Part shown: one piece after another, positions 151 to 28,543 of the stretch
Numbering within the stretch: the first letter of the stretch is position 1
Layout of the letters: the number at the start of each line of letters is the position of its first letter
NCBI GenBank assembly: GCA_002633005.1
Contig: NMRA01000429.1
Coordinates: 124,001 to 188,000, forward strand
Reading direction: 5' to 3'
DNA length: 64,000 bases
Source of the DNA: Phoronis australis
Lineage: Eukaryota; Animalia; Phoronida
The notes under the pieces: generated by a model
What the model was told of the DNA's origin: nothing
Databases searched by the model: none
What the model saw: the letters and a program-made list of their open reading frames with translations, nothing else
Made by a program: the position numbers and the translations under genes

Positions 151-227
151 GTTCACGAACACTGCATTTATGTAGTCATTTCCTCCATCATCGGCCGCCG
201 TCATCAAGAAGGGGCGACATATTCTAA
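151..227 (-). CDS. RPTP exon: PTP D2 (gene continues beyond the window)
   Basis: Phase 1-0. RICRPFLMT...[10 protein letters not shown]. Confidence 0.92.
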
Positions 228-3200
228 CTGCAATGATGTCCAGAACGCCGTATTAAAAAGTGCTCTAAGCTGGTTGACTTAAGACAATCTTGAATGTAAG
301 TCTTATACCAATAATCCACAAAAATCTTGTTGGCCATCATTTTCAAAGTCAACTTCTATCCTACATGTACGTACGCTGGCATCCTGAATGTGGTGGTTAC
401 TTCGGAACCATAGCTTATACTTAATAAGTTCCCAAAATCGCCACGAGGTGGGGACACTGTAGCATCAACATCATAGTTTATTATTTGCAATAAGGAATGC
501 AAACCAGCCATATTGGCTTCAAGCAAGAAAAAAGTAATAGGAACATATCTAGATAATGAAAATTTAACGGCTATTTTAGGGTGGAATGCCGTTTTTTTTT
601 TAACCATGAACATATTCAGAGTGAATGTAACATTATTTGTGAGAATCAAAAATTTCCATGACTAGTTCAGTAACCTTTTAAAGGTAATGATGGGCATAGC
701 GAAAAATGGATTCATGAGCGATGCTCACTTTTAAAGTTGAAAAGTAGGCCAAACTAAATCAACAAAATCCTTTTTTGAGCTTCACAGTTTTCACTACAAA
801 ATGGACAATTTCTTCATTCAGTAGCTAAAAAGGGACTATAAAATTTAAACTCACGTGGTAGAATGTTTGGATCTCTATTCTTGGAAGAGTTTTCTTTCAG
901 TTTCCCCGCTGCATACTCCTCTGCGTCTGCAGCCAGGCACAGTCGATTTAGAGTCTACAATGAGAGTCAGTGACCGAGATTATAACAAATAACTAATGAA
1001 TTAAGTACATTTGACTTTACTTCATCGAGCACAACAACATCAACATCAACGACAACAACCAATATATAACTAACAATGACAACAATAACCTACATGTAAG
1101 TAGAACGACAAAAGCGATAACTTTAAAGTTCAACTAGTATATGGAAACAAATAAACAAAAAATCCACGGGAACATTCATTATTTTTTAAAATCTTTCCGA
1201 CGGACTTACTAGAAACCTTAACGTTGATTGACTAAAATATTTTGACAGTTAGCAGATAAACATTTCCCGCAAATTGCGTGCAATAGAAAATACTTACTTT
1301 GAGCTCTTCCTTTAAAGTGGTTTTGCTGGATATAATTTCCTGCAGACGAAACCGAAACTCAGCTGTTGGGATGAATGTGTCGCCTGTGTGTAGCTTTTCT
1401 ACCATGGCAGTGTAGATGAACTTGTATTGGTCCTTAGAACAGAGACAGACGGTGCTTAAAATCAAGGTGTGCAAACTGTTGTTCGAAATATACAGTTAGT
1501 TGTTGCCATTATAAAATCCACAACTTTCTCTATCACCAGAATTTGCACCCCTTTCTCAGTAGGTAAGTTCCACTAAAATGACAGGATCTAGGTATGCGTA
1601 AGGTGCCTGTATTAAATGTAAATGAGCTTTAATTAATGTTTCAAAGTTTACTCACTCTTGAAACGTCTCGTAAAGTTGGCATCAGATGGCGTTGCCAAAA
1701 AAACCTGACCAATTTTAATTGTCATGTGGGGACTTTTTTGAAAACAAAAGCAAAAACACCACGTCACCGCAGCAATAACAACAGAACCAATTATATGATT
1801 TTTTTTCTAATCAGTAGAAGGACCCGTTTTGATAAAATTATGCAAACAATTTCAGACGTTTCGTTTGACATAAAAACTCGAGTAATTCCTATCATCGTCC
1901 TTCTCGCGTTTCACTGTCGCCAGTTGGGCATCGTTAAGCTGGATTATACAAAGGGCAGTCCACACACATTTGCATATAAACTATTCATACCAGCGTTTGC
2001 ACCATGTTGACTCGCTGTTGGCGAATTTGTCCGAGTTGGCCTAAAACGTCAACCGCACCCTCCGCGTCTGCTTGATCGGACAGAATGTCCATCATGATGA
2101 AAGTGCCAGTTCGACCCACCCCAGCACTGCAATTTAGAAAAGTGAAATTTAGAATACCGTGTCTCCTGCGACATCATCGCTGATCGGAAAATTCGTCATT
2201 GGCTGAGACAGGGCTCAACAGGTCAGCTTATTCCGATATTCACACAGAGCACGATAACAAGCAATAACGAGATGTTTGTCCTCTCCATGGTCAGAAGTAG
2301 CAGGAGTGACAAAACACACAACATGCGAGTTGATCGTCATTACCTTCATCAGCCTTAAACCTGGGACAATAGCAGATATACGAGTAAAGAGACCAGGCAA
2401 TACCTTAATACAACATTATAATATTATATGCGACACATACATGTATTGTCACCTGGGCGTCAAAATAAACCTATTCCGTAACGCATGATGCTCACCAGCG
2501 AAAGCTAATGCTAATATGTGCCGTGCTTATGATGAATTGCGACTTTTCCCGAATACTTGCATCATCTCACAAAGCTCACAAGAATCTTGCTTTATGGAAC
2601 AGAGCGTACAATTTTGAAAAGTAAGTTCGACTGGAGGGGAAATATTAGATAGACGAAGGGTTCGTACGTTAAAAAACAATCATGGCGGATTTGCGCGTAG
2701 TTTCAACTCATTTGTACTGATTCGTCAACAAGAAGACAATTAGAGTGTATATACTTTGATGGAGGACTGTAATTCTTTTGGCTTACCTGCAGTGAACCAC
2801 AGTGGGCACGCCGTCATTATCTTCCCGGATGTGGTCTTTGACGGTTCGGTAGAACTTCCACAGAGCTGAAGAGCTGCTGGGCACTCCGTGGTCTGGCCAG
2901 GATGTGAAGTGGTACTGACTGGTAGTAAGCCTCTGCTGCTCACAATTATCCTTTGGCAAAAATGCAACTTTGTTTTGGCTTACAGTAAAGTATTTTGCAC
3001 AATTTAAAAAAAACAAATACACCTGAGACTGACACAAGAACGTTTACTTACATCAGTAAAACATTACCATCCGTAATGTCTGACTGATTACCATTCGTAC
3101 TATCTGGCTGATTACCATTGGTAATGCCTGAATGATTACCATTCGTACTATCTGTCTGATTACCATTGGCAATGCCTTCCTCATTTTTGTCAAACGCTAG

Positions 3201-6200
3201 TCACGCTTACTCATTTATCTGACTTTCTAAAGAAGTTACTAAAACATTCAAAATGTTAATCTAGAACAAAGCCTCATATTTAATCAAAGGTCTGATTCAA
3301 GTTACATGAATGTGGTGGTATACGACACCCTTTTGTCGGATAAGACTCTATTCCGACTTAAACACGCATCAATCCTACCTTTGTTACTTCAAATTTTCTT
3401 ATTGTGAAGTCGGTCCCTTTTTCTTTGTCGACAGCTGTTACTCTGACGTCACCGTACTTTTCAAATTGAGTGTCTTCTGGCCAGTAAACCTCACACTTGC
3501 GCTAGAAGTATATCGTACATGTAAGCCTGGCACATGCCTGTCGTCTTAAGAAAAAAGGTGCCTTCACCCAGTAACCATTTTATAGGTCGGGAATGGTCTT
3601 TAACGATCACGAGGAATTACTTTATAAATCAGAGAAGGGTGAACGTTGAGAACGCCTTTACAGCACTATGTCCAGACACTGGGATACGATTCCCGAGTAC
3701 GACAGTCCTGCTGCAAACGACTTATTGGACATGGATTGTTCCAAGCCCCCTCGACCCCCACACCCCACGNCTGCCAGACACTCGTTGTAGCTCCATATTG
3801 GAATGTGACGGAGTAAAGATCCATAAAGTTTCATTATGTTTTAAACTTTCAAACTTGCCGAATCGACTCTCTTATTTACAAAAAAAAAGCATGGAGACGA
3901 CAGCTGAGCTCATGGCCCGAATAGTTGGTCCTGCAAGTCAACGCTTGTTACGTGTATATGTTCAGATATAGTCGAGCTTGTGTAGACTGGGTCGAGGGAA
4001 TTGTGTGTCGTGGACCGAGGGTTTTGTAGGGTGTGGGGGTTGGGGGCGGGGGGTTATAACAATCCATTGTAGTGGTTTTCTTCGTATCATAAAATGTGAA
4101 TGGCCCAGAATACGTTCGATACGTCCGAGCCGAGATTTCCCTTGCATTAAGGTATTTGCATAATTTCACCAAAGTCCGCACGGCAACACCAAAGACAGGC
4201 ACTTGGCGGCGCAGCGGTGTTAATTCTAAACATATAATAAAATCAGTTGCTTTTTTGTTAAGGTGTTTCCACCTGTTTAAAAAGAATAACGTCTGAGAAA
4301 AGAGAAACATTGATTTTGAGGAACATGCTGTTCGTCACCTTGAAGAAAAATATTTACACCCCTCCGGTTTTTGTGCGCGCATTTTCTTAAAAAAAGGGTA
4401 ATGAAAAACAAAAACCTTCCTTTGCAATTTCGTGTAGGTTAGGCCCTCTGGAACCAAATAATGACTGGGCTACATCTTCATACCACAACACACTACTCCT
4501 AAAATGCCCAAGGAGTAGTTTACACGTTTAAACTGAGTTTAATGCTTGTAACAAGTTTGCCGTCGGATTATTCAATTCAAAAAACAAAAGCTATGCTCCT
4601 ATCAGCAGAACATCCCGTATTTATGCACGTATCTTGGAGGGGCTTACAGATCCAGAAATTCTCCTGCACTAGGTTACTTGTTATAGCTGCAGTGTTATTA
4701 TACGTGTTGCTCCGATGTCTTTCTACTAAGACCCCTTCTTTACATGATCCATGGTACGCGCCTGTCGTTATACAGTACATGTATGTCCTACCTTCCCATC
4801 TTCCACGTTCTTGGTCAGCATCACAATCCGTGTAATTTGTTCTTGCCATATCATTCGCCAAAAGTCTTCCACAGTGTTTCTATTTGGGCCTAAAGAAGGC
4901 AAGGTACAAGCATTGACAGTGACAAATATTTTCCAGGAAAATGCTTACGATTAGCTAGGCCACATGGTGACCTGGCCCCGGTATCTAATCTGTGTACTCC
5001 AAACAAACTTGAAAATGTTTTTGGCGATTTCTCTGCCCATTTTTACGAAGTCAATATAAGTGGTTATCACACTGTTCTCGAAAACATTATACGCCGCAGT
5101 TTATGCATATGAGTTTCTAGTCCAAGTTTGCACTTGAAGACCCTTACATTCGCGCTACAAAATCAAGTAAAAACTCGAAATTTCGAACTTTTAGCCTTAA
5201 TGTTGGGTTTATCAACTGCAAAGTAGGACTAATAAATTATCAGTGTAAATCATTATGAACTCTAGTACAATATAATTAAAAAATTGCAAAAATAATTTCT
5301 AGTTCCATTTCAATTAAAAAGATTTTAGAGACCGGGCCAGCATGATAAGCATTAAGGTTAGTCTCCCAAGAATTCTGCGAGATAGATATCAAAGTCTTCG
5401 CGAGATGTCGTCAAGCATTTAAAGATAATTAGTACGTAATTTCAAAATATTCATTCGTTAGTGTCTAGAGCTAACACAACGGGCAACATCTTGTATCGTA
5501 TTTGTCTCAAATAAATAAACTAAAACTATATCTCTAGTCAAAAGACACTCTATTGCAATACGCGCCTCCATTACGTACCCATAGCAGCAATGAATGCCTT
5601 AGGACGATTGTAACCATCAATGTAGCTCGCGTTAACATAGCCAGAATTAATGTCGTGGGGCAGAAGTTCAAGGACGACGCGATTTTTGTCATCTAGAAGA
5701 TGATGTTGGAGGATGTTATAATTTGTATTAGAAATGCGAGGTTCACTGCCAATGGCAGACAACTCACTAACAACAAACGACAGAGATCTGACGTAAATTT
5801 GGACGACAGGGTCAATAGTTACGTGAGATTTCAACGACTGGTTAAGTAAAACGTAAAGTAAACGTCAAGAACATGCAACAAAAACAACGCCCGTTAATAT
5901 CCTTAACCTGTTCAATGTAGGTTAAAAAATCTGCATTCTATTTTATTATTTTGTTGTTTTATTCTTCAACGTCAGAGGGCGTATCCTGAGGTGAAAGAAG
6001 TCCGTGAGATATGGACGAAACGGCTATACACGTTTTACGCATGGTACGGTTTCTTTGGTTTCAAAATTGATCTTTTTTTCTATATTTCTATAATTTAAAT
6101 GAAAACCAGGAGTATACATGGTATAAATCTGCTTTAAGATTTCAAAATCCTTAGCAAAACTAAACGTTGATAGGTAAACAATTGCAGAGCCTCCTTTAAG

Positions 6201-9200
6201 TAAATAATTTACATGCTAAGATGTTCTTGAATCGGTTTTTCTTTTTATTCTCCTCTTTACTTCCCTCGGTATGGGGAAAAATGTGATTGGAGGGTAGGCT
6301 CTGAAAAAGATATGCACAGAATACAGGCAGAAGCTACACAACACATTCGAAACAGTGTTTAACACGAGCAAGGTTTATTCATACATTTCCTACCTAATAA
6401 ATGTATATTGTTTGCAACAAAGGCGTAAAAGCAAAGCTGAACTTCAGTAAGTTTATGAAGGCTAACATAGTCATCTTGGATAAATGTAAACACTATCTTA
6501 AGTTGTAAGATGATCTTATTTTAGGAGCACGTGTTACCGTACGTTGTCAAAAAGAGGGAATAAGAATTCACGGAATAGCTTACGTCGGCGCAGGCAGAAA
6601 AACACAGACTGTTAAACTTGTATTGTTTACAGGACGAACTTCGTCAAATTAAACTTGACTCGGACTGTCAACTATACACTCTTAAGTGGTGCGCCCAAAA
6701 TGTGTAGAATGCGTGCTCTCCAGTTCGGACAATGCCTTATTCAACGAAAGTGAGCGATATGTCAAAGTTATCATGCCAAAATTTACGTACCTCATACTCT
6801 TTCACAACTATGTCGTTGTTAAAGGCACATCCGACGTACCACACCAAATCTTCCACTTTGATTGATTTATTGAAGTCTTCGTAAACTGGGTCCGACACAA
6901 GTGGGTTCGACGCTTGGGGACTTCCATTCATCGGTTCCGCATTTACGTACGCATTTTCGAAGCCATTGGAAGATTCTGTTTTGGATTATAACCATTCGAG
7001 GAATTGCCAATAATTTAATGCAGTGCAAAATCTCTTACAAATAAAACAGTTTCCATTATAACCATTTTGAGTGTCACAGCCATGCGATATTACCACTACC
7101 GTTACCACCTTGAGAACTGAAAAGTCAGCCGGCCAATTCTTGAAAAGTCATTTAAATAGTTTTTTTTGATGGAAAAGTCATGTTAGGAGAAAGAAACACA
7201 TGTAAGAATTATTTCAAGACATTACAAATCATAGTTTGAGGGGTTGCAAAGCTCAAATTGCAAATTAATAAAATTATTGTTGTTTAAAAGTTGTATTTAT
7301 TTCGAAATGGCTTGAATTGAGTCTGCTACACAGTTATACAGGTAGTTGGCGCGCGGGTTTCTGGCCCTGTATTGAACTTCTACCCAATATGTGAGTTAGC
7401 TTAGGTCAGCAAAGGAGAAGTCCGAACTCAAAATCTTCGCAAGACGTTGTCAATTTCTCTTTATGCGAATACGAGAGCAAACTCCGTCTACAACTTTGTG
7501 GGCAGGTTTAGCCGTAGTATATACACGTAATATGATAAGTACACTGAAGCACAGTAAGACACAAAACTAACACTTACCGTCAGACTCTGCTTCGATGTTA
7601 TCTAGGTGCAGATCTGAGGAGGCGCCCTTGTTTGCAGACTGGTGTCTTCGCCTAACAAAGAGGAATGTGAGTTTCAATTTTGTCCATATACATTGTGTGT
7701 AGTCACGTCAATATTGCGAAAAACTCCAACACAAAATACATGTTCATTATTTTAAACAAAAACGCATTGCTTTGATTTCAAATTTTTTGCAGACACTTCC
7801 CAAAAGATCAGTTGAGGATTTAATTGATGCTTCAGTGTTTGTTTCCGGGTTTTGTCGGCAAGTCTTATTATGCATAAATTTGTGTTTAATAAAACCCTTT
7901 TCGAAAAACCCTTTAATTTATGCTGAAAACATCCAAAAACCCCTGACCACGTTGTCAACCTGTTTTAATTGGTGCACTTACATGTTTTATCTGACACTCG
8001 TAAGTCATTTAATTGAGTTGTTTGTAAAATGTGTTCCAGTTAAGTATTTCAGCCTTTTTCGGTGATTGAGTTGGAAACGTCTTGTTCTCACCTCCGCACA
8101 ATGAAAACTGCCAATGCTAGAACCAAGAGGAATGCTGCAACTCCACCACAAGCGCCTCCAATCGTTGTCATCCTGCCTTGTTTAAAGTTCTTTGCTGACA
8201 TCGATGGAGAATAAAACGTTAGTCCTAATTCATTCATTATAACAACAATTTCCTTCATATCACAGACCTTGAATCTGAACATTAGCGATAGCGGTGGCCA
8301 TCATTGGACATTACATAAGATTTGCAGGGTAAGCCATCCCGGAAAACCAAGAAAAAAACGGACTGAGTTAACATATAATACTTGTTTTAATAAATGCCCG
8401 GATGCTCCATTCTGAACACTGTTTACATAGCACATTTGGTCCTTTTACACTGGGACAGAACCAAACCAATAAGCCTCGATTCCATGTAGCGGGTACATGT
8501 AAATCAGTAAATGGCTACTTAGAATGAAATAAATGTCATGATATTCCCAATTTTATTATTAATAAAATTGGGAATATAATGACATTTATTGTATTCTAAG
8601 TTTACTTGTGGGCTACAAAAACTGGTTGAACTTGTTTACATTAAGCTACAGTTTCACGTAGGTAGAAGCAGACGAATGTTTCAATGAATTTCAATGAAAT
8701 TTCAAAGTTGTTTTGGCCATGTCATCAACCTGGGACTCGTGTAGGATTTTTTATTTATCGAATGGTGACAACAAGTCTTCGCTCCAGTGACTTCAAAGCA
8801 CTATATACAATATACCGGGAATTTCCGAAAATACGCTCATAGGCGTACTTTTGGTGGGGCTATTTTTGGAGATACCCGGTACGCAAATCACTGTCCGCGC
8901 TAAAGTGCATGGCGTCTTACACAGATGTACATGTAGATTGTGCAAGTTTACACAGACCACTTGTAGGTTTAGAATTTACCTCCCTCTTCAACAGTCTCAT
9001 AAATCGAACTGCTCCAACTGCCCCAGTGAGTAGTCTTTGCACGAATCTGGAATATGTACATAACAAAATATAAAGCTCTTATTCCCACGTGACATCGTAC
9101 AACTATCAACTAATAATATGGTCACTCAGACACAGTGACATCGTACAAATCCCACTAATGATACTAGCACTGAGGCACAGTGACTGATGACTGGAGAGAC

Positions 9201-15200: not shown

Positions 15201-18200
15201 GGAGTTTCATTTTAAATTACTTAAGAATCATAATTCGTTTTCAAACGAAAGCCTAACATGTAGACAATTATTGGCAAATTCTTCACATAATACGTCTCCG
15301 GTTTTCTAAGAAAGGAGGTTGTCACTAGACACATGCTGTCGATTTAGATATAAAAAGTCAATCTTAAAGAATACCAAAGTGTGTCCCTTAGCAGGTTTCT
15401 TTAATTGTACTAATTTACAATAAGCATTTTTATATCAATATCTTACGTCCGCACACTGATGACTCAGGACTGGCAGCTCCAACGTCGTTGTTGGCAAGCT
15501 TTATTTTGACCCGTACATGCATTTGGTACTGGTTTTGGTCGTCCCCAGGTCGAATTGAAAATGAAGAGACGCCACTGTCAACGTCATTGCTTCGTGTCCA
15601 GTCAGAGGCCGTCGTTTGTCGATACTCCACAATGTACTTGTGAACTGGTCCAACACCACTATCAGTTTGAGCTGACCACAGACGCCAAGTCACAGTTATC
15701 ACAGTGCGGCTTCTCGATATACTGGGTGCGTTAACTAGACGAGCTATGTCTAAAACACACAAACGCATTTAAACCAAACAAATATATACTGGAAGGTGAT
15801 GGCGGAAGCAGTTACTGTTGCCTGGCGATTGGTCTGTAACGAAACTTTAATCTTATTTTCTGCGTGTCAGCTTAAATTGCCGACAATCTAGACTCTCAGG
15901 AGTGGACAAGAAAGCTCACTCAATACAGCACATACGCAACAGGACAAAGAAGTATGGAATGTATACCAATTTTACAGTATGGCGTCTTATATCCCTCCTG
16001 GCACGTGCAAATTCCTCTGAACCTGTCACAAGTTCCAGGCAAGCAGCGACCACAGGACTGTAGGCAGTCTGCACCGTAGAAGTTGTCTGGACATTCTGCA
16101 AAACTAAACTAATGTAAATCAATGCTCAACACCTCGCTAACAGAGTGAAACTAAAATTGGAAAGTGATATAAATCACAAATGAGTAGTCAAATGACTTCA
16201 CCAGGAATGTAGTTATTCCATACCGTTTTTATCTTTATTTTTATACCAGCACATGTTCATTTTACAATGCCCTCCGTATACTACATTTGCATTCGTACAC
16301 CTCCTTTCTCGTTATCTCATTGGCCATTTGTTTTTGATTGTTCTAAAACTCCCTCGACCGAAACACATCACGACCCCCTCTAGCCCATCGATCCATCACT
16401 TCTCGACCCACAACCCCCACGACACACAATGCCCTCTACCCATGACCTGTGGCAAGAAGATGTTTTGCTGTTTACACAGTTCATAATCATATTACGTCGA
16501 TGAGTGACTTTTGCATAAGACTTGCCTACACGCTAATCTGCTCTGGCTCAAGACTGGTGGTCAAAAACAGAAATAGCACACTGTGAGCGTGCTATTGTTG
16601 TCACAGAAATAGTTGCACCAGAGGTTACCAATGACCATGTTAAACTTAACTTAGGGAGAGAGTACATGTACCATAACGTGAATGCACTCAAATATACATT
16701 TTTCTATTTACTTTCTGCTGTATATTTTTTCTCAATATACTCCATTTTACGGTGAGATAAAATACCTTTTTAGTTAACAGTTTGTTTTTCAAACTATATT
16801 TTCTGAAGAAACTACGTGTCTCTCGGTTCCATGCACTCTCCAAAAAGTTTGAATCTGCTGTTCACTGAAGATCAGACAATACAGTGGCGGATCTAGGATA
16901 TCACAAGGGGGGGGCCCAACTTTTGTCCGGCTGTAAACATTTGCGCAAACTGAACCACGATTGTAGATGCACATAGCACCGAAGTGGGGGAGGTCGGGAC
17001 AAACCCCCCTCCCGCCCAAGAAATTTTTCTGTTTTTACCTCTAAAAATCAAGCATTTTCCTTGATTCCTGAAGAAAAAAAGAGGCAAAAAAGAAAAAAAA
17101 AAAACGGAAAACGTGTCGAACAGAAAAAAATGCAAGAACCTAAGATTCAAACCCACGACCTGGAGGATTGGCGGATAGAACGCGCGTGCATTACCACTAC
17201 ACCACCACGACTTAACTACTAAACGCTTTCTGAGAGACCTACTTATTTATGGTGTACAGCGTTTGCGCGCGAAATCTACTTCTTTTTGTAATGCTTATTA
17301 CACGTTTTATATTTTGTGCCATCAATTCTTAACAAATTTGTCGTATTTAAAATAGTCTTCAAATGTCCAAAAGACCAAATCCGTTTTTCGTGTTCAACTG
17401 GCAATAATGACGGGATTGCTTTGGAAATCGTCTTAAGATAAGGTTTGACAAAGAGAGTATTGCGAGTTTCCGAGTGATTCACTACGGCTTCGATTAAACA
17501 CATCTTACCAGCAGCTTCTGTTTTTCATCGTCACTCAGATTCCATTTTCTTTAAAAAATGAAGTAAATTTTCTTCATTGCACAGTGGAGCAGACGACGGA
17601 AACGGAGTCGTAGTGCGCAGCGCCACTGCCGGTCGCCTGGGATATCGCNATACGAATACACTCTGCCGGAAACGACATTTGTCAAGTTGGTAGGTATTTA
17701 ATTTGGTTTGATCGCGTTGTTTTTGTCTATTTTTGGCTTTCAAACTTGCCGAATTTTCGTAATTGCAAAAACCGGAAAAGCCAACTGAGCTCACGGCCAG
17801 ACTCGTTTGTCCTGCAAGTCAGCACTTTTTATGTACCGATCGAGGCGAGCTCTCGTAGACTAGGTCAGGGGAGTTGAGGGCCTTCGGTCGAGGGGGGCGT
17901 GGGGTGTGGGGTCTAGGGAATTTTATTACAAACCAGTTATTTCTATTTTTTCAGTATTATGTGACCTAGCTTAATCATTCACCTATCGTATTTCCCACAA
18001 GACTTCCTAAGTGCTTTTTTCGGGTTAAATTCCCCAACATCCTTAGGGGGTTATTGGATTTCCCGTTCTACCCAATTTTCTGAAAGACACTTCAGACTTT
18101 TTTCTAGTCACACATTTGTTAAATCTTCTGCTTACTTTGGGACCTTCTATGTTCCACGGCTTAAACCTTTTTCCTGTCTTCTTTTATTGCTTTTTATACT

Positions 18201-21200
18201 TACGTCGTAATACACGACATTGCTGTAATATCCACATGTTATTTTACTCTGCGACATACCTCATGTCGTACCCCTGGCAAAACAGATTCCGATTAATTAC
18301 CTTAGAGGCGGCGAACACGAACTCTGTTCGATCTATAGTATTATCTTGGGTAAATTATAACTTTTAATCGCCATCTTGATAAGGAAAGCAAAGCGATTTA
18401 CCCCCAGATCATAAAAAGATTGTTCCTAAGCCCCCTCGACCCCCATATCCCACGACCCTTTCGGCCCACAACCTCTACGACCCACGACCAGTGGTAATAG
18501 ATGTATCTTTGCGCTTTTTACATATTTCATAATCACACTACGTCGCTGAATGACTTTCCTAGATGTACATGTGTGAAGACATATCTACATGTACACGTGA
18601 ATCTGCTCTGGTTCAAATCTGATGGTTAAAATCAAGTTGCGTGAGAATCTGATCAGACATAGACGATGGTGAGCGTGCTATCGTCGTCAAAGAAATGATT
18701 TCACGCGCGGTTACCAATGGCTCTGTTCCAGTGAACTTAGGGAGAGAGTACGTTAATGTGGATGTAGATAATTTCACATTTTATTTTCCTTATTTGCTTT
18801 CAGTTGTGTACTTGTTTACAGTATACTCTATATAACACTAAGATATTTTTAGTTAACAGCTTGTTTCTTTCAAAACGTGTAATATTAAATTACATATTCG
18901 TCGGCTGCTTGCACTCTCCCAAAAAGCTTGAATTTGCCTTGCACTAAAGAGCTGACGAAACGATTACCGTCTGCCGGGAACGATAATTGTGTCGTCGGTA
19001 GGACTTTTGATTTGGCCGCGATTTTTTTCCCGTTGCTGGCTTTCAAATTTGCCGATTCGACTCTCTTAATTGCACAAAAGCAGGGAACAGCCAGCAGAGC
19101 TCACGGCCAGACTTGATGGTCCTGCAAGTCAGCGCTTGTTCTGTGCTCAGATCGAGTCGAGCTTGTGTACACTGGTTCGAGAGGGTTATGGGTCGTGGGT
19201 TAAGGGGTTCGTGGATCGTGGATCGAGGGGGTTGTGGGTCGTGGGTCCAGGGGATCGTGGGTAGAGGTGGTCGTGGGGTCTGAGGATCGAGGTGGTTTCA
19301 GAAGAATCCATCATAAACCAAAACAATAGTTTTAAGAGACAGCGATGAATGCGAGTTAAAGCAGCACTCGTCATTTAAACGATCTGAGCCATGTCTCAGA
19401 AACGTTGCAAATCTCCCACAATGGCTTCACTTGTTTTAGCGATGAAACTCTAAGTAAGCCTGCGGGATTAATACTGAAACAATTCGGCAATGAGGTTGAA
19501 AGATGAGACGTCACCTATGGTTCGAATAATGTACTATGGTAAATATTGATAAATGCAAGAGCTTATGATAATATAGTTCCGTGACCAGCAATGAGTGATG
19601 CTATCTTACCTTGATCACATCCAATTCCTTTAAAACCAGTGGCACACGAGCATCCATACGGGTCTATAGTACATACTTGTCGGTATCTACACCCTGTGTC
19701 TACGTCATCAGAACAGTGGAGGGCACAGTCATATCCAAATCTGTTTGGACCACATGCTGAAACATGAGGTGGGGTTGGGCAGCGAAAAAATCCAAACTCG
19801 CACGGGTTTTGCGCGTGATCAATGTAAATTTAGAAAAACAAGGCAACGGATGCAAGGCTGAAGTATTTTTCTTGTGACTATTATGTTTTGTAGTCACGGA
19901 GTTTTATGGGCATGTAAAATATTGGTTTAACAATGTCCTCGCATGCTATGCTTCAGGGATGACGGAAAATGTCCAAACTGTCAGGAGCAGGTGTACTGTC
20001 TACTATACTTAAACAATAAAAGTTTAATTAAGACTTACCTAATACCAAAGAATTGTCGAATAATTACCTTCAGAACAATGCCTCCCCTTAAAACCCGGAG
20101 CACAGATGCATTCACCGGTTATATCATGACATACTCCGCCATTTGAACAGGTAGGACAGTTGTGCTCACATAGTCCGCCATACTTTCCGTCGGGGCAAAC
20201 TGAAACCAAAACAGTACATGCGACTCGACTAGATATTCATCTCTCCAATGCCAATATGGCACAAGAGTCAAACTTTAAAATGTCTATAGTTGCAGGGTTT
20301 TCCAAAATATACAGAGTGAGCCAGTGTCAAACAAAGGTTCTTGAGACACACGCCATTTCCCTTTGTTAAAAGCTCCATTGCACCTGTTTCATGTCAGGAA
20401 GTTTAAAAAGCTAACCAGCCTTCACCATAAAGCAGTTTCGTTCAAACTGGTTGTACTCGTATGTAAAACAAGTAACACAGGTTGTAATGTCTTCGAGAGA
20501 CTGGAACAACCTCTATTGTCTATCAAGAATTATTTTGCTCTCAAGTGTATTAGTAAGAAGAAAAATTGAGATTTGTGGAAAATATCGGTCCTTTTAATCA
20601 ACAACAGTGGTAACAAAGAATATTTTTTTGTTTTATAAGAAAGTTCAACTTTGTGAGACAGGGAATTTTTTCAACAATTTCGTTTCCGTTTTGATAGACA
20701 GGCGAGTGATAAAACGAGCTCAACACATTATTGAAATGTATTCCCTCTTGCGTAGTCCTTACAATTCCATAGAGGCCTAACTACATGAAAAATATACCAC
20801 TAATTGATGAAGTTACAGTACTCCAAAATTATAACAAGATGTCACAGGAACGTATGGAGACTGTAGGATAATGTGCCATATAATTCATCATGAGCTTACT
20901 CAATACTAAAATATTTCACGCATCATATCGTAAATTTTCGTGGCAGTATGTGTGCAGTAGCCTTAAATTTCCTCTTACCTCGCACAATGAGCCTGAACAC
21001 TCCTTTCGCCACTCGACGGTAGCCTTGCTGAGTATACACCATGTATATTCCACTGTGGCCCAACTCAACAGTGTTAATCGAGGGTGTCTGTTGCCCGTTC
21101 CAAATACTTGAATATCTCCAAGTAAAATCCCCACCATCTTTCTTCCAACTTAGTCCGCTCTCTGAACCTTTATACTTAAATTTTACGTTAGCGGCCCCAA

Positions 21201-24200
21201 CACTTGTACGCTGTGTTAAGTGCTCTGCCAGAAGGAACAAAAACATGTGTACTTTAAAAGTCTTTAACATCACTAACAACTGTTCAAAAAATCCCATTCT
21301 ACATTGACCTCTGACAAAACACTCGACCTGGGGTCCGTTTCATGAAAGTGACTTAAGACTTACATGTAAGGCAGAAAGTTGGGTCTGATACCCCCACTTC
21401 ACGATTTATGAATAAATACTTCGCCAAGTAAATGTAAGCGCATCAGAGTGTAACATAACGTATTGAAATGATCTTAGTAACTATCAGTTGTGTTTTATGA
21501 AAAAAAACACCTGAGCTCATGCAGACGCTCAAAGAGTACTCCGATATTCACATCGTTCACTTAAAATTAATTTATGCTAATGGAAATCTCGATTCAAATC
21601 TCAGTGTGCCGTTATTCGAAAAAGACGCTAAATTTCTATTTTGGAACGATGTGTTGATAAACTGGCATTGACCGTATGTACTAAAATGTACACAAAACGT
21701 ACCGACAGAGGAGTACATGAAGTAATATGCCACGAGACATTGTTCCGCTTATCGAAGTAGAATTTCCGTTTTGATCGATAAGCGGGATCATGTCGAGTGG
21801 GATATTACTTCAGCTACGCCAATCGATCTACAGTTTGAATTTATCCCATATCATCGAATTCGTAGGTTTCTAATATTCTCTCGACATATTTTTTAAGTAC
21901 TTCACCGAGACTGTTCACATGACGGATCATATCCTATAAGTTCTATCTAGTATATGAGACACCTATATTACTTGAGACAACAAAGACGAAAACAACGGTA
22001 ACTGTGCATGAACTTGTAATGTCTCCTGAAAATAGTTAAATAACGACGATATTTGATATTGAAGTTACCAAGCTAGGAATCGACGTCTGAGTTGCAGACA
22101 ATATAATATTTAGCAATTGAAAACTGAGACAGAAGTGTGATATATTTAACATTTTTGTTCTAGATCTCACGCTTGGGACCTGATTGCATGATGAGCGTTA
22201 TTCATACTGATGCAATTGGATTACCTTAAACTACAGTGTATTACATAGGTGGGTTTATGGGGGGGGGCAGGGGGCCCTCCCCCCTTGGGTGCCGCAAGCA
22301 AAATGAAACAGCAACAGCGTGAAGCGTGTAGAAATATTGAGTTCAGTAACTAAGACCGGTAGCGGATGACAAGGGGGGCTCAGACCCCAGATCGCGGCGG
22401 TATCGTGTTCCCGTTTTTTCAGTCCAGCGATAGATTTTCCGAAATGGAGATCCACAACCCCAGCCCCCCTCAAATTTCGGGTCGCCTACACACATACAAA
22501 CATACAATCGCACTTTGCCCGATTCGCGAGACAACATATTGGGTCTCCTTTTGGTATCCTAGATCCGCCACTGTATTATGGGACAGTTTGATGATCGTAA
22601 CGGTTAACGAAGTTGAGTCGAACTTTCCATGTCAGAGGTCGCTGCTGAAGTAGTCCGGGAGGGGAATACGGCCGTGTTGCACTCGACAGATTCAATGCAT
22701 ACGGGACAAATAGCTAAATTACTTTGTTCCTTTTTCACATCTGCCTTCATCCCAGTTGTTCTTATTGATGTCTGATTTTGCATTTATGATAGAGATCTTA
22801 TCAATGCCAATGGAATTTTAGTTGCGTAACTATATTTGTTGCGTAACTTTATTTGTATATTTAAATCTAGATTTGTATCGCTACACAAATAAATGACAAC
22901 ATATTAACTATAGTATTTAGCCGAGATAACGAACCGTTATGTCCAGGCTTGTAACTATTAAACAATGACTTACTTAAGCAAAACGCAACATTGACCAAAT
23001 ATACCAAAAGTAAAGGAAACAAAAAAGAAAAACAAAATCACAATTGTAAGAATGTGTGTTCATCTTTATATATTGATGACGTATTTAATATTCTTGATGC
23101 CTACACATAATATCAAATACTTTCTAGGCATAACTCCAAATATACTACATTAAACTTTTTTGTAAAAATATATTAAACAGAAGAACTTTGATAGGTCGAC
23201 ACATTTACAATCACGTGATACCAATGCCACGTTACCATTTTTTCCACGATCAAGGGTGGTGAATGACAAACAGTTATGGGCCACTTACATAAAAAGATTT
23301 CTTGATATGCGCTGGCTGACGTGGTTCTATTTCATGTTCCCTGGTGTATGTTAGTGAGACACAGAGTAAGTATTTCAGGAAAAGTTGTTGAGGTTTCCTC
23401 CTTGGTAAGGAATCGGTAACCTTCCCGGACTAAGGAAGATTACTGTTTTATGCATAGCTGTCCAAGTGACTCATTGATCTAGACATGCTTAATAAAATTT
23501 TTAATAAAAATAGAAAAATTAACCTACCTTTACTCATTTTAAAAAAACTTTACAGAGTTAACATGGAGATTCACCTTGCGTGCAGACTGGTACGCTGCAA
23601 TAGTCCCACCGACGACCAGAGGTAGTGTAACACCAGGGTTGTCGAGTTTCTGGCCATGCTTGTTTATTTCTACAATAGTTTTCCTTAAACCGTTCTCCAG
23701 TGATACCGTGCGTGTGTGGAGTTTGGGAATCCCATCGCTGGCAGATGATGCCACCTAGTGTTGTGTTAATGCGACCTCTGTAATTATCTCCTTTCTCGTC
23801 CTCTTTGCAATCTCCTACAAATGAAGTATACTACTGTGATCGCACTATATAGCGAACAAAAAGTTGATGAAAAATGGAGATTACGTAATGTTTACAAAAT
23901 GAAAGAAACATGTAAGTACAGAAAACGTGGACAATATATTTTCAATAAACTTGCATAGCCTCTAAGAAGTCACAGAGCTAAGGAAGCTCAACACGTAAAA
24001 TTTTCGGCTATGAAAAATTTAAAGCTCCTATTTGAGAAAATGTCTAAATGCTTGACAGATTTTTTCCGAGAGATTATACTAAAAAATTGGCCTTGTCGCG
24101 AGTCAAATCACCATCTTTTTTAAAAATGAATGAAACTATGTAGATCCCACCTTATTTAGATATCAAAAGATGTGTTACACATGTCACAAGGCTGAAAAAA

Positions 24201-25624
24201 GATGTGTGCTGTTACCGACCTTAGTATGCAAAAATAATAAATATAAAAGTGCACTATACAAAGGTTTTATAAAATCCAAACATTCTCTGCGTCCGTTTGC
24301 ATTTTACATCACTGCTGGTGAAAAGAGCATCGATGGAATCTTTGAACTTTTGTAAAAGTGTGAACCTTCTACGTCATGTGTTTTGTTTTTTATTTAAATA
24401 CAAGATACGTGAATTAAGTCTTGCTATTTGCCCTGGTCTACTCAACCGAACGAGAGCCGAAAGCCGGAAACTCCAATGCCGACAGAACAATTGTCTACGC
24501 AGGATATTGAAATTTAGCGCGTCGTGAACTTGTTTCGTTGAGTTCATAGTTACTGGTTAAGTATAAGTAGCCATTCTGTACTTGCATAGAGTTCCTGTGC
24601 ATTCATATTACCGTTTGATCACCGTTGAACAGATTCTCCCTGACTCTGCTATGTTCACTCCAAACGTGTGTGCAACTTTACACGGTGCTTTCCCGAGTGA
24701 ACAATCCAAGATGTTCTCAACAGAGAACAAGAGTCAGTCACTCAACCATGTTTTTGGCCAAACAAATGAAACACAAAACATTATCAACGCCGCCCACATT
24801 TAGCACCTAGCCAGCATAAACATTCAAAGCATGCACGTGGTGTCTACATGTAGTAAATGGTTAAATAACAACTTTCATATTACTATGTACAAGTAGTGCA
24901 ACTCAATAGAAATTGGTGTTAATGTGAAGCTTTAGAAATTCCTCAAAATCTAGTTGAGTAAACGCAATTACTAAGATTTCAGTTTCTTGTGTTTGCCCCA
25001 GTAGCACTTGACTTGCCTTCATTTAACCCATACCCGAGATAAGACGCTACAATTCCACCTTTCTTCGTTGAAATAGTGTTCTTCGCACTATTACTAAATG
25101 TTTGTCCTATTACTCTTTAATGAAATGGAAGTAATTTTCAAAACTTAATGCGGACTACGTTCTTAGTAGTGTGATATATTTACAGAAGCTGCTGTTGATG
25201 TCCAGTAATAGCAGTTATGTGCTGTAAATCTAAGTATATGACCTAGTTCACGACATTTCCATTTTAATTGCAAGGAATTAGGATGGTCAGGTGACAACAG
25301 TTATGATGGATCTTGCATCGTGACTACAGTACAAACCTGTTGAAAATGTAACGCCAGGAACGATCACCCACGAGTAGAGATTTTTCTTGTTGACTGTAAA
25401 GTAGTAAGCGGCGAACTTGTCCTCTAGTGTGAATCGGGAATAAGCATTAGGTCCTGTGCCTACGTTTCCTTTTGATGCAGGCGCCGAAGTAGCACCTCGC
25501 GACCCTATATTCACGTGCACTCCGCTCTCTATGGCGTCTGTGTCGATGTGAACGTTACTTCCACCATACACTCTGACGTCACCATCAGATAAAGACACCA
25601 GCACGCTGATGTTGTATAGCGGTT
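151..25624 (-). CDS. Receptor-type protein tyrosine phosphatase with Tie-like ectodomain (Ig-kringle-Ig-EGFx3-FN3x5-TM-PTP D1-PTP D2 partial); whole-gene span, incomplete at both ends
   Basis: 26 exon pieces with GT-AG boundaries whose phases chain in frame, apart from the interrupted FN3 repeat 4 exon. PTP motifs [51 protein letters not shown] and MVQTLDQY are present. Confidence 0.93.
855..954 (-). CDS. RPTP exon: start of PTP D2
   Basis: Phase 0-1. TLNRLC...[14 protein letters not shown]. Confidence 0.92.
1298..1432 (-). CDS. RPTP exon: D1 end and D1-D2 linker
   Basis: Phase 0-0. [22 protein letters not shown]...LKEELK. Confidence 0.94.
1991..2126 (-). CDS. RPTP exon: PTP D1 P-loop and Q-loop
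   Basis: Phase 2-0. [13 protein letters not shown]...[12 protein letters not shown]. Confidence 0.97.
2787..2950 (-). CDS. RPTP exon: PTP D1 WPD loop and catalytic Cys
   Basis: Phase 0-2. [13 protein letters not shown]...PTVVHCS. Confidence 0.96.
3063..3177. repeat. 24-bp minisatellite, ~5 units with alternating variants
   Basis: attaccatt(c/g)gta(c/a)t...ctg units. Confidence 0.85.
3379..3501 (-). CDS. RPTP exon: PTP D1
   Basis: Phase 0-0. [21 protein letters not shown]...[10 protein letters not shown]. Confidence 0.96.
3731..4067. mobile_element. MITE family A copy (ATGGATTGTT...AACAATCCAT, C-rich and G-rich arms)
   Basis: Terminal inverted repeat; homologous to ~16335-17935 and ~18417-19311. 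Contains an N. Confidence 0.75.
4792..4889 (-). CDS. RPTP exon: PTP D1
   Basis: Phase 1-0. [32 protein letters not shown]. Confidence 0.96.
5579..5692 (-). CDS. RPTP exon: PTP D1
   Basis: Phase 1-1. YDKNRVVL...[22 protein letters not shown]. Confidence 0.95.
6213..6300 (-). CDS. RPTP exon: PTP D1 wedge and pTyr-recognition loop
   Basis: Phase 0-1. [29 protein letters not shown]. Confidence 0.93.
6791..6975 (-). CDS. RPTP exon: juxtamembrane and entry to D1
   Basis: Phase 1-0. [14 protein letters not shown]...[15 protein letters not shown]...VKEYE. Confidence 0.88.
7578..7651 (-). CDS. RPTP exon: juxtamembrane
   Basis: Phase 2-1, strong donor gtaagt. [24 protein letters not shown]. Confidence 0.85.
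8092..8194 (-). CDS. RPTP exon: transmembrane helix
   Basis: Phase 1-2. [22 protein letters not shown] followed by the basic stop-transfer RRRR across the junction. Confidence 0.92.
8518..8600. repeat. Near-perfect AT-rich palindrome
   Basis: cttagaat..aataaatgtcat.atattcccaattttatta|t|taataaaattgggaatat.atgacatttatt..attctaag. Confidence 0.85.
8980..9046 (-). CDS. RPTP exon: FN3 repeat 5, second part
   Basis: Phase 0-1. [22 protein letters not shown]. Confidence 0.88.
9591..9808 (-). CDS. RPTP exon: FN3 repeat 5, first part
   Basis: Phase 1-0. PPSPNNL...[21 protein letters not shown]...NTYEFK. Confidence 0.92.
11827..11894. mobile_element. Mini inverted-repeat element, TSD CACGA
   Basis: CATGGGCGGC...GCCGCTTATG flanked by CACGA on both sides. 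Confidence 0.75.
12131..12176 (-). CDS. RPTP: probable 3' remainder of the FN3 repeat 4 exon
   Basis: [15 protein letters not shown] completes the FN3 AVNxxGxGxxS pattern. It ends in A|gtaagt, phase 1, matching the next exon. Confidence 0.6.
12177..12555. mobile_element. MITE/DNA-transposon fragment inserted at TTAA inside the RPTP FN3 repeat 4 exon
   Basis: Abrupt start ttaa|GAGCAATTCCA followed by AT-rich non-coding sequence. The other end is hidden by the N at 12556. Confidence 0.55.
12557..12802 (-). CDS. RPTP exon: FN3 repeat 4, 5' part (ends at the assembly N and insertion)
   Basis: PSEPPTSV...[11 protein letters not shown]...[14 protein letters not shown]. Confidence 0.9.
13081..13389 (-). 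CDS. RPTP exon: FN3 repeat 3
   Basis: 309 nt, phase 1-1. TISLTWAAP...[16 protein letters not shown]...G. Confidence 0.92.
13539..13852. repeat. Tandem duplication, ~157-bp unit, two copies
   Basis: ttaatcttatattccaattaag...gcgatacaaaatt occurs twice. Confidence 0.9.
13876..14310 (+). repeat. Dispersed repeat, second copy at ~33563-33980
   Basis: Shared blocks aactcttccttga.taaactaaatt, ttgcgtcacctattggc and attttaat.ccagaaaa. Confidence 0.7.
14608..14824 (-). CDS. RPTP exon: FN3 repeat 2, second part
   Basis: Phase 0-1. [17 protein letters not shown]...[10 protein letters not shown]...SLEK. Confidence 0.88.
15087..15148 (-). CDS. RPTP exon: FN3 repeat 2, first part
   Basis: Acceptor aatttcag, donor gtaagt, phase 1-0. 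[20 protein letters not shown]. Confidence 0.85.
15447..15749 (-). CDS. RPTP exon: FN3 repeat 1
   Basis: 303 nt, phase 1-1. ITVTW...[11 protein letters not shown]...YQMHVRV...GAASP. Confidence 0.9.
15967..16095 (-). CDS. RPTP exon: EGF-like repeat 3
   Basis: 129 nt, phase 1-1. [41 protein letters not shown]. Confidence 0.93.
16335..17935. mobile_element. MITE family A copy interrupted by a nested insertion (16882 to ~17649)
   Basis: Colinear with 18417-19311 on both sides of the insertion. Confidence 0.7.
17136..17211 (-). repeat. tRNA-derived (SINE-head-like) degenerate sequence
   Basis: A-box-like TGGTGTAGTGG and B-box-like GGTTTGAATC. No clean anticodon arm. Confidence 0.55.
18417..19311. 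mobile_element. MITE family A, longest uninterrupted copy
   Basis: gattgttcctaagccccctcgac...gaagaatccat. Shares the internal block cagagctcacggccagact...cctgcaagtcagc with the other copies. Confidence 0.75.
19610..19756 (-). CDS. RPTP exon: EGF-like repeat 2 (Tie type)
   Basis: 147 nt, phase 1-1. [48 protein letters not shown]. Confidence 0.95.
20068..20199 (-). CDS. RPTP exon: EGF-like repeat 1 (Tie type)
   Basis: 132 nt, phase 1-1. [43 protein letters not shown]. Confidence 0.95.
20979..21224 (-). CDS. RPTP exon: Ig-like domain (Tie Ig2-like)
   Basis: 246 nt, phase 1-1. HLTQRTSVG...WKKDG...HSGIY...GVFRLIVR resembles Tie2 DAGVY...FTRLIVR. Confidence 0.9.
21720..21811. repeat. Imperfect palindrome
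   Basis: gaagtaatat...ccgcttatcga...tcgataagcgg...atattacttc. Confidence 0.8.
22244..22573. mobile_element. GC-rich MITE, TSD TATTA
   Basis: CATAGGTGGG...AGATCCGCCACTG flanked by TATTA on both sides. Confidence 0.75.
23575..23814 (-). CDS. RPTP exon: kringle domain
   Basis: Acceptor catttgtag, donor G|gtgaat, 240 nt, phase 1-1. [77 protein letters not shown] has all six kringle cysteines. This frame is missing from the ORF track. Confidence 0.93.
24430..24830 (+). mobile_element. Possible decayed LINE (L2/CR1-like) 3' fragment
   Basis: [14 protein letters not shown] and LHRVPV resemble the KLQ..QN..AR.I...LHWLPV tail of L2/CR1 ORF2; heavily frameshifted. Confidence 0.35.
25337..25624 (-). 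CDS. RPTP exon: N-terminal Ig-like domain (Tie Ig1-like)
   Basis: Acceptor tttttacag, donor G|gtttgt, 288 nt, phase 1-1. [12 protein letters not shown]...[10 protein letters not shown]...; assigned mainly by position and phase. Confidence 0.7.
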
Positions 25625-25795: not shown

Positions 25796-26040
25796 CCACA
25801 TGGATAGGAATACTACCTTTTTCGAATTTATCTGGTAATGTCCCAAGGAGACCAAACTATATATATCCCACATATAAGAACTTATTTGCATCATCGTGGC
25901 AATACCGCCTTGCCGTGTGATCCGGCTTGTTGTTGTATGACATCATAAGTATGCCAAGTGCAGTGTAATAGCCGGTTAAGCGACAACTTAAAGACAATCG
26001 GTGAAAGTGTTGAATAACCCAGTAATGTTTTATGACATAC

Positions 26041-28543
26041 TAGTCGGTGGGCCAGATCTCATAGCCTTCATCCTTGTGAGTACTTGGGGGGGGGCAACCT
26101 AGTTTTTTCCATGTGGCTAGATAATATACCTAGCAATCAAATTCCAAATAGTTCCCACGTCTACACTTGCACATTTTTTTAAAAAAGGTGTTTCTGTTGC
26201 ACAAAATATGATGCACATTCCTGCCACTTGATGGCGCTTTTCTATTGAATTGACCATTCAGAGAGCCAGATTGTATTGTTGTGATTAGTTACTTCAATAT
26301 GGCTGCTCCCATGGAGTGTGATGCCTGTATAATTCAAGGTTTATCAAACAGCACAAAATTGTGATGTCAGAGCCTAAAGAAGCTTAGGAAAGCTTCCTGA
26401 CGAAAGATGATTGAATGTGAAACTCTGTAGATCAGTAGATCAAAAAGAAGAAGAGGTGTCACAAACGTTTGTGCAGAAAACAGCTGCATGTCCTGGTAGC
26501 CTACACAGTATACTGCTGAGTGCTGTACTGCAGACTAGAAGACCATGTGTCAGACCAAAAAATTGAAAGGACATAGAACGCCATAGCAACGTTTCAAGGC
26601 ACCAACAGTAGTACTAAAGCTGAAGTTGCTGAAAGGGATACAGATGTTATCCAAGATTTCCGAAGAAAATCAATTATACTTCCAAAATCTGAAACACCCA
26701 ATTAACCTGAACAAGATAGGAACATTCTGAAACATGAGTGCGTCATTTGTTAGCAGGAAAAGTACATTATGGGCAACATTTCAAGAAGGAGAAAGAAGTA
26801 TAGCTTTCAAAAACAGGTACGTGTTTTTGAAAAATACATCTTGGTGTTTTCCATGTGTGTTTCAGTATTATCACCATTTGTTTTTTAACTTGTTCAGCCC
26901 CTTGGCTGCCTAGGCCTTAGACAATACTGCTGACCCAGTAGAGACGATGATCATACCATAGGCACTCCATATGCCGGATACTTTTCGGCAAATTATGTTC
27001 CTATAAGTTTAGAAGTACCGCGTAGAGAGATGCCTCTAAGGAGGTCGTTAATGTTTTCATTTGTTCCCAGTTTAAACAAATACTCCTGCAATCCTGTTTT
27101 TCGAACACTCCATTCAGTTGCCACATCGACACTGCTTGCGCTAAGGGATAATCCTATGGCGTTATACTGTGGGTATGATTTTAAAGTACTTTAAATCAAA
27201 AAAAAATTGAGAAGGTTAAATGGAGTAGCTGGTTGCAAATAACATGCCCAAGTGGCCGTCATGTCCTGCCGTAGTCTCATTTTTTTGTAAACATTAATTA
27301 CTTAGGTAGCTGCAATGATAAATAAATTAAAGTGCCTAAGTGGCCATCGTCGCCGTCGAAATTTGAGGACGATGGAAGGCACTGTCCATTTCGTCAAACG
27401 TCGAGTACCTTGGACTTGTATCGCAAGCAACAGCTCAGTCCAGAGCCCTGAATATGCAAATGAAATTCAAAGATAATGAATGTGTTTTAGAAGCCAAGTA
27501 CCACAGATCATCATGCTTTAAAAAATAGAAAGACAATTAACGAAGAGTGACGAATTCACAGTTTTCAGAGATGTTTTTCTACAGTTCATTGAATCGAAGC
27601 TTCTAACACGAAGAGATGTCATTTGCCTTTCAAAACTAAAGCAAGACTTTGAAGCTGTTCTTCAGAAAGCTGGTGTGCATGAAGTTATTTGGACAGGCAA
27701 TCTTAAGAAATATTGTTGAAGCTACTCACTGTTGTAGTTTGTGCCCGAGTAAGAGATACGAAAGTGAATTGAGGCTAGTGTTCAATAATTCACTTGCTGA
27801 CTCTAATTAACACAGCCCATTATAACATATTTTGAATCAAACGTTTGCCCATATAGTGCCCGCCTCCAAACAAGGACTTAGTGTTTGACCCTTCATTGCC
27901 TGCGGGCTAATCACCAGTGTGCAGTGCTGTACCCTCTCTAATCGACCATAGTTGGCTCCTTGGCGGTGGAGCTTTGCGGTTAATATGTACATGCATGGCA
28001 ATGACCGCATCTCCATTGACAGTACTAAACGATGAACGCTGCAAGTGCAAAAAAGAACATGTGTGCTGGAAAACTGAGTTTGTGCTGCAATTCTGGGTCA
28101 AACTGTACAGAATTGTGCAGCTGTGACAACTGTAGTAACATCAGCAACACTGACTGCATAACATTGGATAGTTCTTTGACAAGTCAACCCCAATTAAAAT
28201 AGACCTCCAACCCCGTTATTTCCTTTTTGTATTAAAAAGTTGTTGATTAAGTCATAGAAAGTACATACTTTGATCATTGTCATGTATTTGTCTCATACTG
28301 CTTGATAAACGCTGTCAGAATAATCTATTATTTTCATACAGTCTTTGTGCACATTCACAGAGATCATTCAACTATATTGTTTTTGTACTATAACGTATTT
28401 CTGGTGTATTGTGCAAACAAGCTGTATTTTACACCATTAGTCAATGTTTTAGTCATTGAGGCACAAATTTTGCCCAGTCTCAAGTGTTTTGTGTTAGTTT
28501 TGTTGCCAGACAATGCCAGAATAACTTCCTAGTAACATTCAGA
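26041..28543 (+). mobile_element. Second, right-truncated copy of the same Academ-like element
   Basis: Near-identical to 41224-43677 with different internal indels. Left TIR present, right end missing. Confidence 0.8.

Follow-up and report, generated by a model that had tools for sequence, protein, structure and literature searches.

The closest described systems are the Tie receptors and the receptor protein tyrosine phosphatases (RPTPs). Vertebrate Tie2 binds angiopoietin ligands through its second immunoglobulin (Ig) domain, Ig2, the fibrinogen-C domain of the angiopoietins being the Tie2-binding type of domain, and the receptor depends on a separate phosphatase, VE-PTP. Sea-urchin Tie receptors, SpTie1/2, were reportedly described by Stevens in 2010. 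In RPTPs, the first protein tyrosine phosphatase (PTP) domain, D1, is active and the second, D2, is regulatory, and ligand-driven clustering sets their activity or location. No vertebrate RPTP of the R2A, R2B or R4 type is known to have EGF repeats or a kringle, and the ectodomains of PTP mu, kappa, F, T and delta are different. Paired receptors of opposite sign are known from vertebrate immunity, where the enzymes are recruited. Here we analyzed a 64,000-nucleotide stretch of Phoronis australis contig NMRA01000429.1 (positions 124,001 to 188,000; hereafter the window), in which a sequence-only reading had proposed a Tie-like ectodomain joined to a tandem phosphatase instead of a kinase. The interpretation that we favor, with confidence that is about even, is that this gene encodes a kringle-capped, single-pass RPTP of the Tie type that acts as the inhibitory member of a paired set of kinase and phosphatase receptors.

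The gene model, rebuilt from the sequence, comprises 25 minus-strand exons between 25624 and 151, every one of them with AG/GT ends. They form two stop-free frames, of 771 residues (exons 1 to 11) and 560 residues (exons 12 to 25), and the predicted order is exon 1, a kringle, an Ig domain, three EGF repeats, five FN3 domains, a transmembrane helix, PTP D1 and the start of D2 (Table 1). A Pfam search run on 20 of the 25 exons detected one kringle and recognized three exons as EGF, four as FN3, one of these weakly, and five as PF00102. The Ig and EGF exons (21224-20979, 20199-20068, 19756-19610 and 16095-15967) have GT-AG borders, are all of phase 1-1 and splice in frame, as the sequence-only reading had stated, and all the motifs quoted there are present; the kringle exon, 23814-23575, had been overlooked. 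One EGF repeat per phase-1 exon presumably matches the structure of the TEK gene. The full D1 lies in the window together with the first ~58 residues of D2 (two exons), at which point the window ends, so that the tandem phosphatase of the earlier proposal is seen here as D1 plus the beginning of D2. Exon 1 had no Pfam match, scored 3.3 bits on a profile of the Tie Ig1 region, which is inside the range of shuffled sequences, and gave a single-sequence structure model with a predicted local distance difference test score (pLDDT) of 34.8.

Compared with vertebrate TIE2/TEK and TIE1 and with SpTie1/2, the encoded protein shares Ig2 and the three EGF repeats, with their order and spacing unchanged, and then, as they do, has FN3 domains and one transmembrane helix. 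It differs in having a PTP for a kinase, a kringle cap, no recognizable first Ig domain and no third; among the Tie Ig domains only the second is recognizable, and after EGF3 an FN3 exon follows directly in both the DNA and the RNA reads. It has five FN3 domains, whereas Tie receptors have three. The transmembrane helix and the D1-D2 arrangement resemble those of vertebrate R2A (LAR/sigma/delta), R2B (mu/kappa/rho) and R4 (alpha/epsilon) RPTPs. In D1, the WPD loop, the HCSAGVGRT motif and the Q-loop are intact, a single transmembrane helix precedes the domain, and the WPD exon had RPTP sigma, epsilon and alpha as its top Protein Data Bank (PDB) matches; D1 is predicted to be a catalytically active phosphatase. 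In the tree of D1 domains it was left unplaced among the invertebrate PTPs that carry a Tie-type Ig-EGF block (hereafter the Tie module).

On the evidence of PDB matches, profiles and tree, the Ig-EGF block is Tie-type. EGF1 matched human Tie2 best in the PDB (expectation value, E, 4.5e-12) and SCARF1 at E 1.2e-6; for EGF2, Tie2 chains were the sole PDB matches under E 0.1 (E 2.2e-6), and EGF3 alone had none at that threshold. Of the whole block, the Ig domain has diverged most. Taken alone, its exon found no Ig match in the PDB at E 10; it scored 14.5 bits on a profile of nine vertebrate Tie Ig2 domains, for which the best of 1000 shuffles reached 8.7, and 49.2 bits on a Tie-like profile of 61 rows. 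The structure model of this exon is an Ig fold (pLDDT 82.6; Z 11.0, root-mean-square deviation 1.6, 77 positions aligned), and the fold searches returned generic Ig domains, with no Tie2 among the matches listed. A combined profile was built from the four window exons and ten stretches of homologs, one row being frog Tie1; it covered 217 of 218 positions in its match to Tie2 (E 2.8e-64) and half of them in its match to SCARF1 (E 1.4e-15). When 168 proteins were ranked by the EGF block of the window alone, 14 labelled vertebrate Tie rows stood at positions 6 to 123 and 13 MEGF/PEAR1-type rows at positions 150 to 168. In a 68-row tree, the MEGF-type rows split from all Tie-module rows, the window protein included (100/99, long branches). 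The PDB matches, the profile, the ranking and the tree split all favor Tie, as the sequence-only reading had it, over a block of the MEGF10/PEAR1/SCARF type. Mollusc RPTPs of the SCARF/MEGF type (Biomphalaria 'subgroup 1C', SudRes1) have SCARF-like EGF arrays; PMC13712769 reports, in snails, SCARF-like receptors that combine a Tie2-superfamily EGF signature with two PTP domains and belong to resistance-linked clusters. The oyster protein P0067 (P numbers are our handles for fetched proteins) has neither the Ig domain nor the DPYGC motif and fell outside the Tie branch (100/99).

The sequence-only reading had allowed that such chimeras might already be catalogued in invertebrates, and they are. 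A first search, with the module of one sea-urchin homolog as query, returned 65 proteins among 247 candidates, namely, 33 with a PTP, 22 with a kinase and 10 with neither in the Pfam column; an added profile search, from which the best 120 of 442 matches were taken, brought the fetched set to 168. The full Tie module was present in 151 of these, 46 of which had a PTP, 49 a kinase motif and none both, tallies that count isoforms and near-copies; two PTP matches were found in 34 of the 46. Another 120 proteins came from searching cluster representatives with HMMER; 57 of them had the full module, and 12 a PTP. Every one of the five echinoderm classes, as well as amphioxus and spiders, is represented among the PTP-tailed proteins of the 168, and the named sources are sea urchins, sea stars, a brittle star, sea cucumbers, crinoids, a hemichordate, amphioxus, spiders and a scorpion; no vertebrate PTP-tailed Tie-module protein was among the named matches. 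The Ig-3EGF-FN3-transmembrane-PTP architecture is therefore already in RefSeq/GenBank for many invertebrates, misnamed, since these proteins are automatically named after vertebrate PTP mu, kappa, F, T or delta. The same layout is seen in XP_038066610.1, XP_038048244.1, XP_071800236.1, XP_033636860.1, KAG8199340.1, XP_067124638.1, XP_077981809.1 and XP_035698254.1; invertebrate Tie-module RPTPs are 41 to 46% identical to the window protein in the module and 44 to 50% in D1. The window protein is capped by a kringle, and others by F5/8-C, PAN, LCCL or an extra Ig domain, with C-type lectin and fibrinogen-C as further caps across the family. Among 288 fetched proteins none joins a kringle to the Tie module, and this cap is new among the fetched set. 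A word search with EGF2 returned only two proteins, and no close ortholog is on record at such sensitivity.

Byrum is said to have named sea-urchin-specific RPTPs in 2006, which may include Tie-module PTPs. Neither Tie-module PTPs nor kinase/PTP pairing appeared among the titles and abstract starts listed in our literature search, which lay outside most subscription papers. In the parts available, PMC5336234 deals with R3 RPTPs only and PMC4284660 holds no relevant passage. According to PMC13409769, Asterias rubens coelomocytes contain both a Tie-2-like kinase and a protein called 'RPTP F-like'; the A. rubens Tie-module PTP P0197 has the same name, a match by name only.

Some relatives carry further combinations. 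The Branchiostoma proteins P0053, P0081, P0087, P0088, P0094 and P0104 have the Tie module and a fused fibrinogen-C domain, three of them also with a kinase and a SAM domain. In Apostichopus, P0017, P0020, P0021, P0022 and P0024 are Tie-module receptors with a degenerate PTP that lacks the catalytic motif (24 to 26% identity to D1 in four, and a short partial match in P0022), and may be decoys. P0002 of Lytechinus pictus, a Tie-type EGF/FN3 receptor, represents a third type of tail, which is short, bears tyrosines and has no enzyme domain. In P0018 of Diadema antillarum the Tie module occurs with a ZP domain, and this module is nearly identical to that of the PTP-tailed P0016.

On the alignments compared, the pairing of kinases and PTPs on similar ectodomains holds as a family-level feature in sea stars and amphioxus. 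The module tree mixes kinase-tailed with PTP-tailed proteins on starred branches, with the pairings P0042-P0039 in Asterias, P0037-P0034, P0054-P0050 and P0032-P0027/P0033 in Patiria, and P0059-P0060/P0058 in Branchiostoma. Ectodomain identity was 84% over 710 residues for P0042/P0039, 66% over 756 for P0037/P0034, 80% over 899 for P0032/P0027, 73% over 1297 for P0054/P0050 and 80% over 797 for P0059/P0060, and within pairs it falls to ~20% on the cytoplasmic side; control ectodomains were 42% identical both between two kinases and between two PTPs (one pair each). In P0037/P0034 and P0032/P0027 the match stops before the transmembrane helix because the PTP has fewer FN3 repeats. Sea-star partners were on contigs of the same size, with accessions four apart in one pair. 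The approximately unbiased (AU) test, on 23 rows picked after the first tree was seen, rejected a single kinase clade (p-AU 1.9e-6), the constraint costing 800 log-likelihood units. For 17 of 19 invertebrate kinases there was a PTP-tailed module at 72 to 94% identity, which was the nearest module of all in five and tied in one; two kinases had no partner. One of these two, P0047, is 65% identical to frog Tie1 in the kinase domain and the others 47 to 51%, so that by its kinase domain P0047 is the canonical Tie and the paired set a side family beside it. In Diadema, P0015 and P0016 have near-identical D1 domains and unrelated modules, a further sign of ectodomain exchange. The paired Tie-like kinase that the sequence-only reading had suggested is thus found at the level of the family, in sea stars and amphioxus, but not for this gene in the window.

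If the window protein belongs to such a pair, its Ig-EGF-FN3 ectodomain with the kringle cap would sense an extracellular ligand or a partner cell, and the predicted active D1 would remove phosphotyrosine. Duplication and exchange of ectodomains, through exon shuffling at phase-1 introns or gene conversion, may keep kinase and phosphatase tuned to the same ligand; a shared ligand would then cluster both receptors, and the phosphatase would damp or threshold the kinase signal. The clustered copies and changing N-terminal caps suggest recognition at cell surfaces as the role. An angiopoietin-type ligand is possible, because several amphioxus relatives carry fused fibrinogen-C; the changing caps point to varied ligands, and the Ig domain is poorly conserved. 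The vertebrate KIR, LILR, Siglec and SIRP receptors likewise form clusters of paralogs whose ectodomains are almost identical and whose signalling tails are opposite in effect, but they recruit kinases and phosphatases via immunoreceptor tyrosine-based activation or inhibition motifs (ITAM/ITIM), whereas Tie-module receptors carry the enzymes themselves.

Some observations weigh against this interpretation, and they concern both the integrity of the gene and its partnership. The phase chain, which the sequence-only reading had followed from the Ig domain to the PTP, is in frame through exon 11 and again from exon 12 to exon 25, but it breaks once, between exon 11, which ends in phase 0 at 12561, and exon 12, which begins in phase 1 at 9808. 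Five bases separate position 12561 from the N at 12556, into which exon 11 may alternatively read; of five candidates for a missing 0-to-1 exon between 12560 and 9809, none was FN3-like. The RNA, which carried the same species label, comprised three raw runs (X1 to X3) and one contig run and was aligned to 5650-17000, corresponding to exons 6 to 18, exons above 17000 lying outside. Stranded joints lead from EGF3 through the FN3 exons, with all four internal joints of FN3 1-4, to exon 11, and from exon 12 through the transmembrane exon into D1 by joint 6791/6300 and on to its second exon by joint 6213/5692, and the locus is thus transcribed and spliced on both sides of the break. The sequence-only reading had proposed RNA as the check for a single transcript; no 12561/9808 joint was among the joints listed, beyond which there are another 14 joints and 566 loose ends. 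Most aligned reads, repeat-derived ones included, were 90 to 95% alike and showed several junction variants, so that they stem from divergent alleles or close paralogs and not necessarily from this copy. At 6213-7651 and 13081-13389 there were several read classes in one run with intermediate allele shares, and variants included a 6-nucleotide in-frame deletion in the juxtamembrane region and stretches of 13 and 16 nucleotides replaced at junctions, which suggests close paralogs, pooled animals or high polymorphism. A mis-join of two neighboring genes or paralogs at the N's at 12556 and 10517, with the Tie exons and the PTP exons in separate transcripts, would account for the coincidence of the phase break with these N's, and is in line with the position of other single N's at repeat ends, like contig joins, and with the paralogs or very divergent alleles that the read classes imply. 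We nevertheless regard it as very improbable. Exons 11 and 12 align with consecutive FN3 domains of the homologs with a gap of only ~20 residues, the joined Tie-module/PTP architecture is common in the homologs, sense depth in X1, summed over five exon bins on each side of the break, was 84 and 86, and the between-run ratios agree across it (X2/X1 0.65 and 0.71; X3/X1 0.056 and 0.037). The single N's are probably assembly gaps. On account of the consecutive FN3 domains, the equal depth and the matching ratios, from which we infer the join across 12561/9808, the locus is most likely a single gene, and very probably, as the sequence-only reading held, the Tie ectodomain is joined to a receptor PTP.

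As to partnership, there is no kinase exon within the 64-kb window, and ectodomain exons were no deeper in RNA than the transmembrane and D1 exons, so that no co-expressed near-identical kinase twin is visible. Sea-urchin and sea-cucumber clades of Tie-module PTPs had no kinase partner among the matches, and for 11 of the 19 kinases another kinase was nearer than any PTP. All the pairs depend on automatically predicted genes in tandem clusters, where models can be mis-joined, and P0059 belongs to another assembly than P0060. The window protein lacks a close relative, with identities of up to 46% in the module and up to 50% in D1, and every tree left it unplaced; in its D1 the KNRY motif reads KNRF, with Phe for Tyr, although KNRF or RNRF also occurs in 14 of 37 homologs. 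The missing twin, the lack of an excess of ectodomain RNA and the PTP-only clades are the reasons why our confidence in the paired interpretation is no better than even. The same three observations fit a stand-alone, fast-evolving RPTP for adhesion or recognition that borrowed its Tie module long ago, has no kinase twin and works like other invertebrate RPTPs with EGF ectodomains, as do the snail SCARF-like tandem-PTP receptors in clusters of transmembrane-protein genes tied to parasite resistance (PMC13712769). The recurrence of kinase/PTP pairing in sea stars and amphioxus speaks against this explanation, and missing partners are weak evidence because the searches were word-seeded and incomplete; we consider it unlikely, while taking it seriously. 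More doubtful still is an inverted-sign angiopoietin receptor, in which Ig2 would bind a secreted fibrinogen-domain ligand and the phosphatase would oppose a canonical Tie kinase as VE-PTP does. The Tie-type Ig2-EGF block, the fibrinogen-C domains fused in the six amphioxus proteins named above and the angiopoietin-like genes of invertebrate deuterostomes, which PMC5237311 reports in amphioxus, sea urchin and acorn worm, are in its favor. Ig2 is, however, the least conserved part of the block, with no PDB Ig match of its own and no Tie2 among the fold matches listed, and the paired kinases stand apart from the canonical Tie represented by P0047. Vertebrate Tie1 has the same architecture as Tie2 and is not known to bind angiopoietins directly.

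Table 1. Features of the Tie-module RPTP gene in the window
Feature	Position	Strand	Evidence
Exon 1, 95 residues, phase 1-1	25337..25624	-	GT-AG, in frame; gene membership inferred
Kringle exon, phase 1-1	23575..23814	-	PF00051, E 2.8e-17; in frame with both adjoining exons
Ig exon, Tie Ig2-type	20979..21224	-	Tie profiles, shuffle control, Ig fold
EGF1, Tie-type	20068..20199	-	Top PDB match Tie2 2gy5, E 4.5e-12
EGF2, Tie-type, DPYGCSC motif	19610..19756	-	Tie2 chains in PDB, E 2.2e-6
EGF3	15967..16095	-	Pfam EGF_2, E 2.3e-4; RNA joint to next exon in X1 and X2
FN3 1-4 (exons 15749-15447, 15148-15087, 14824-14608, 13389-13081, 12802-12561)	12561..15749	-	Pfam fn3 on three exons, one weak
Phase-chain break, ~20 FN3-4 codons absent, single N's at 12556 and 10517	9809..12560		Phases, homolog alignment
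FN3 5 (exons 9808-9591, 9046-8980)	8980..9808	-	Pfam fn3, E 5.2e-9; joint 9591/9046 in RNA reads
Transmembrane exon	8092..8194	-	Hydrophobic stretch in translation; RNA joints on either side
Juxtamembrane exons (7651-7578, 6975-6791), tyrosine motifs	6791..7651	-	Translation; RNA joints
PTP D1 (exons 6300-6213, 5692-5579, 4889-4792, 3501-3379, 2950-2787, 2126-1991, 1432-1298)	1298..6300	-	PF00102 on five exons, E 9e-11 to 4e-6
PTP D2 start (exons 954-855, 227-151)	151..954	-	tblastn with homolog D2 regions, E 0.03 and 8e-5

Upstream of the gene model there are three signal-peptide-like candidate exons, two of which sit in a duplicated repeat (46513-46420 and 45961-45868). Exons of a VWA7-like secreted protein lie head to head with the RPTP gene at 56724-59081 on the plus strand (PF25107, E 1.9e-11), which limits where its missing 5' exons can sit. 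A segment of ~2.5 kb, probably a mobile element, is present in two copies of 91 to 94% identity (26030-28547 and 41212-43681). Two-copy tandem duplications of 120 to 300 bp with 94 to 98% identity occupy 44887-48864, near the N gaps at 47012-47063 and 48171, and are possibly haplotype or assembly duplications. The G+C-rich stretch 53031-54736 contains an internal repeat, and both of its strands have open frames that overlap.

For specialists, the new part is the ectodomain pairing in the relatives; the single gene is one more member with a new cap. The dozens of invertebrate genes called 'PTP mu/kappa/F/T-like' carry misleading names. We tentatively suggest, with somewhat less than even confidence, that invertebrates have an overlooked family of paired receptors, kinase and phosphatase, whose Tie-type ectodomains are held closely similar through repeated exchange, which would allow on/off sensing of one ligand, and that the gene described here is its kringle-capped phosphatase member. 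Since the family is spread over echinoderms, hemichordates, amphioxus and chelicerates, its phosphatase branch may go back to early bilaterians and may since have been lost in vertebrates. If this is true, a shared ectodomain with a built-in kinase or phosphatase would be a more direct arrangement than the paired receptors that recruit their enzymes, and the origin of Tie would be recast, with the Ig-EGF block as a mobile recognition module that was used with several tails and of which vertebrates kept the kinase.

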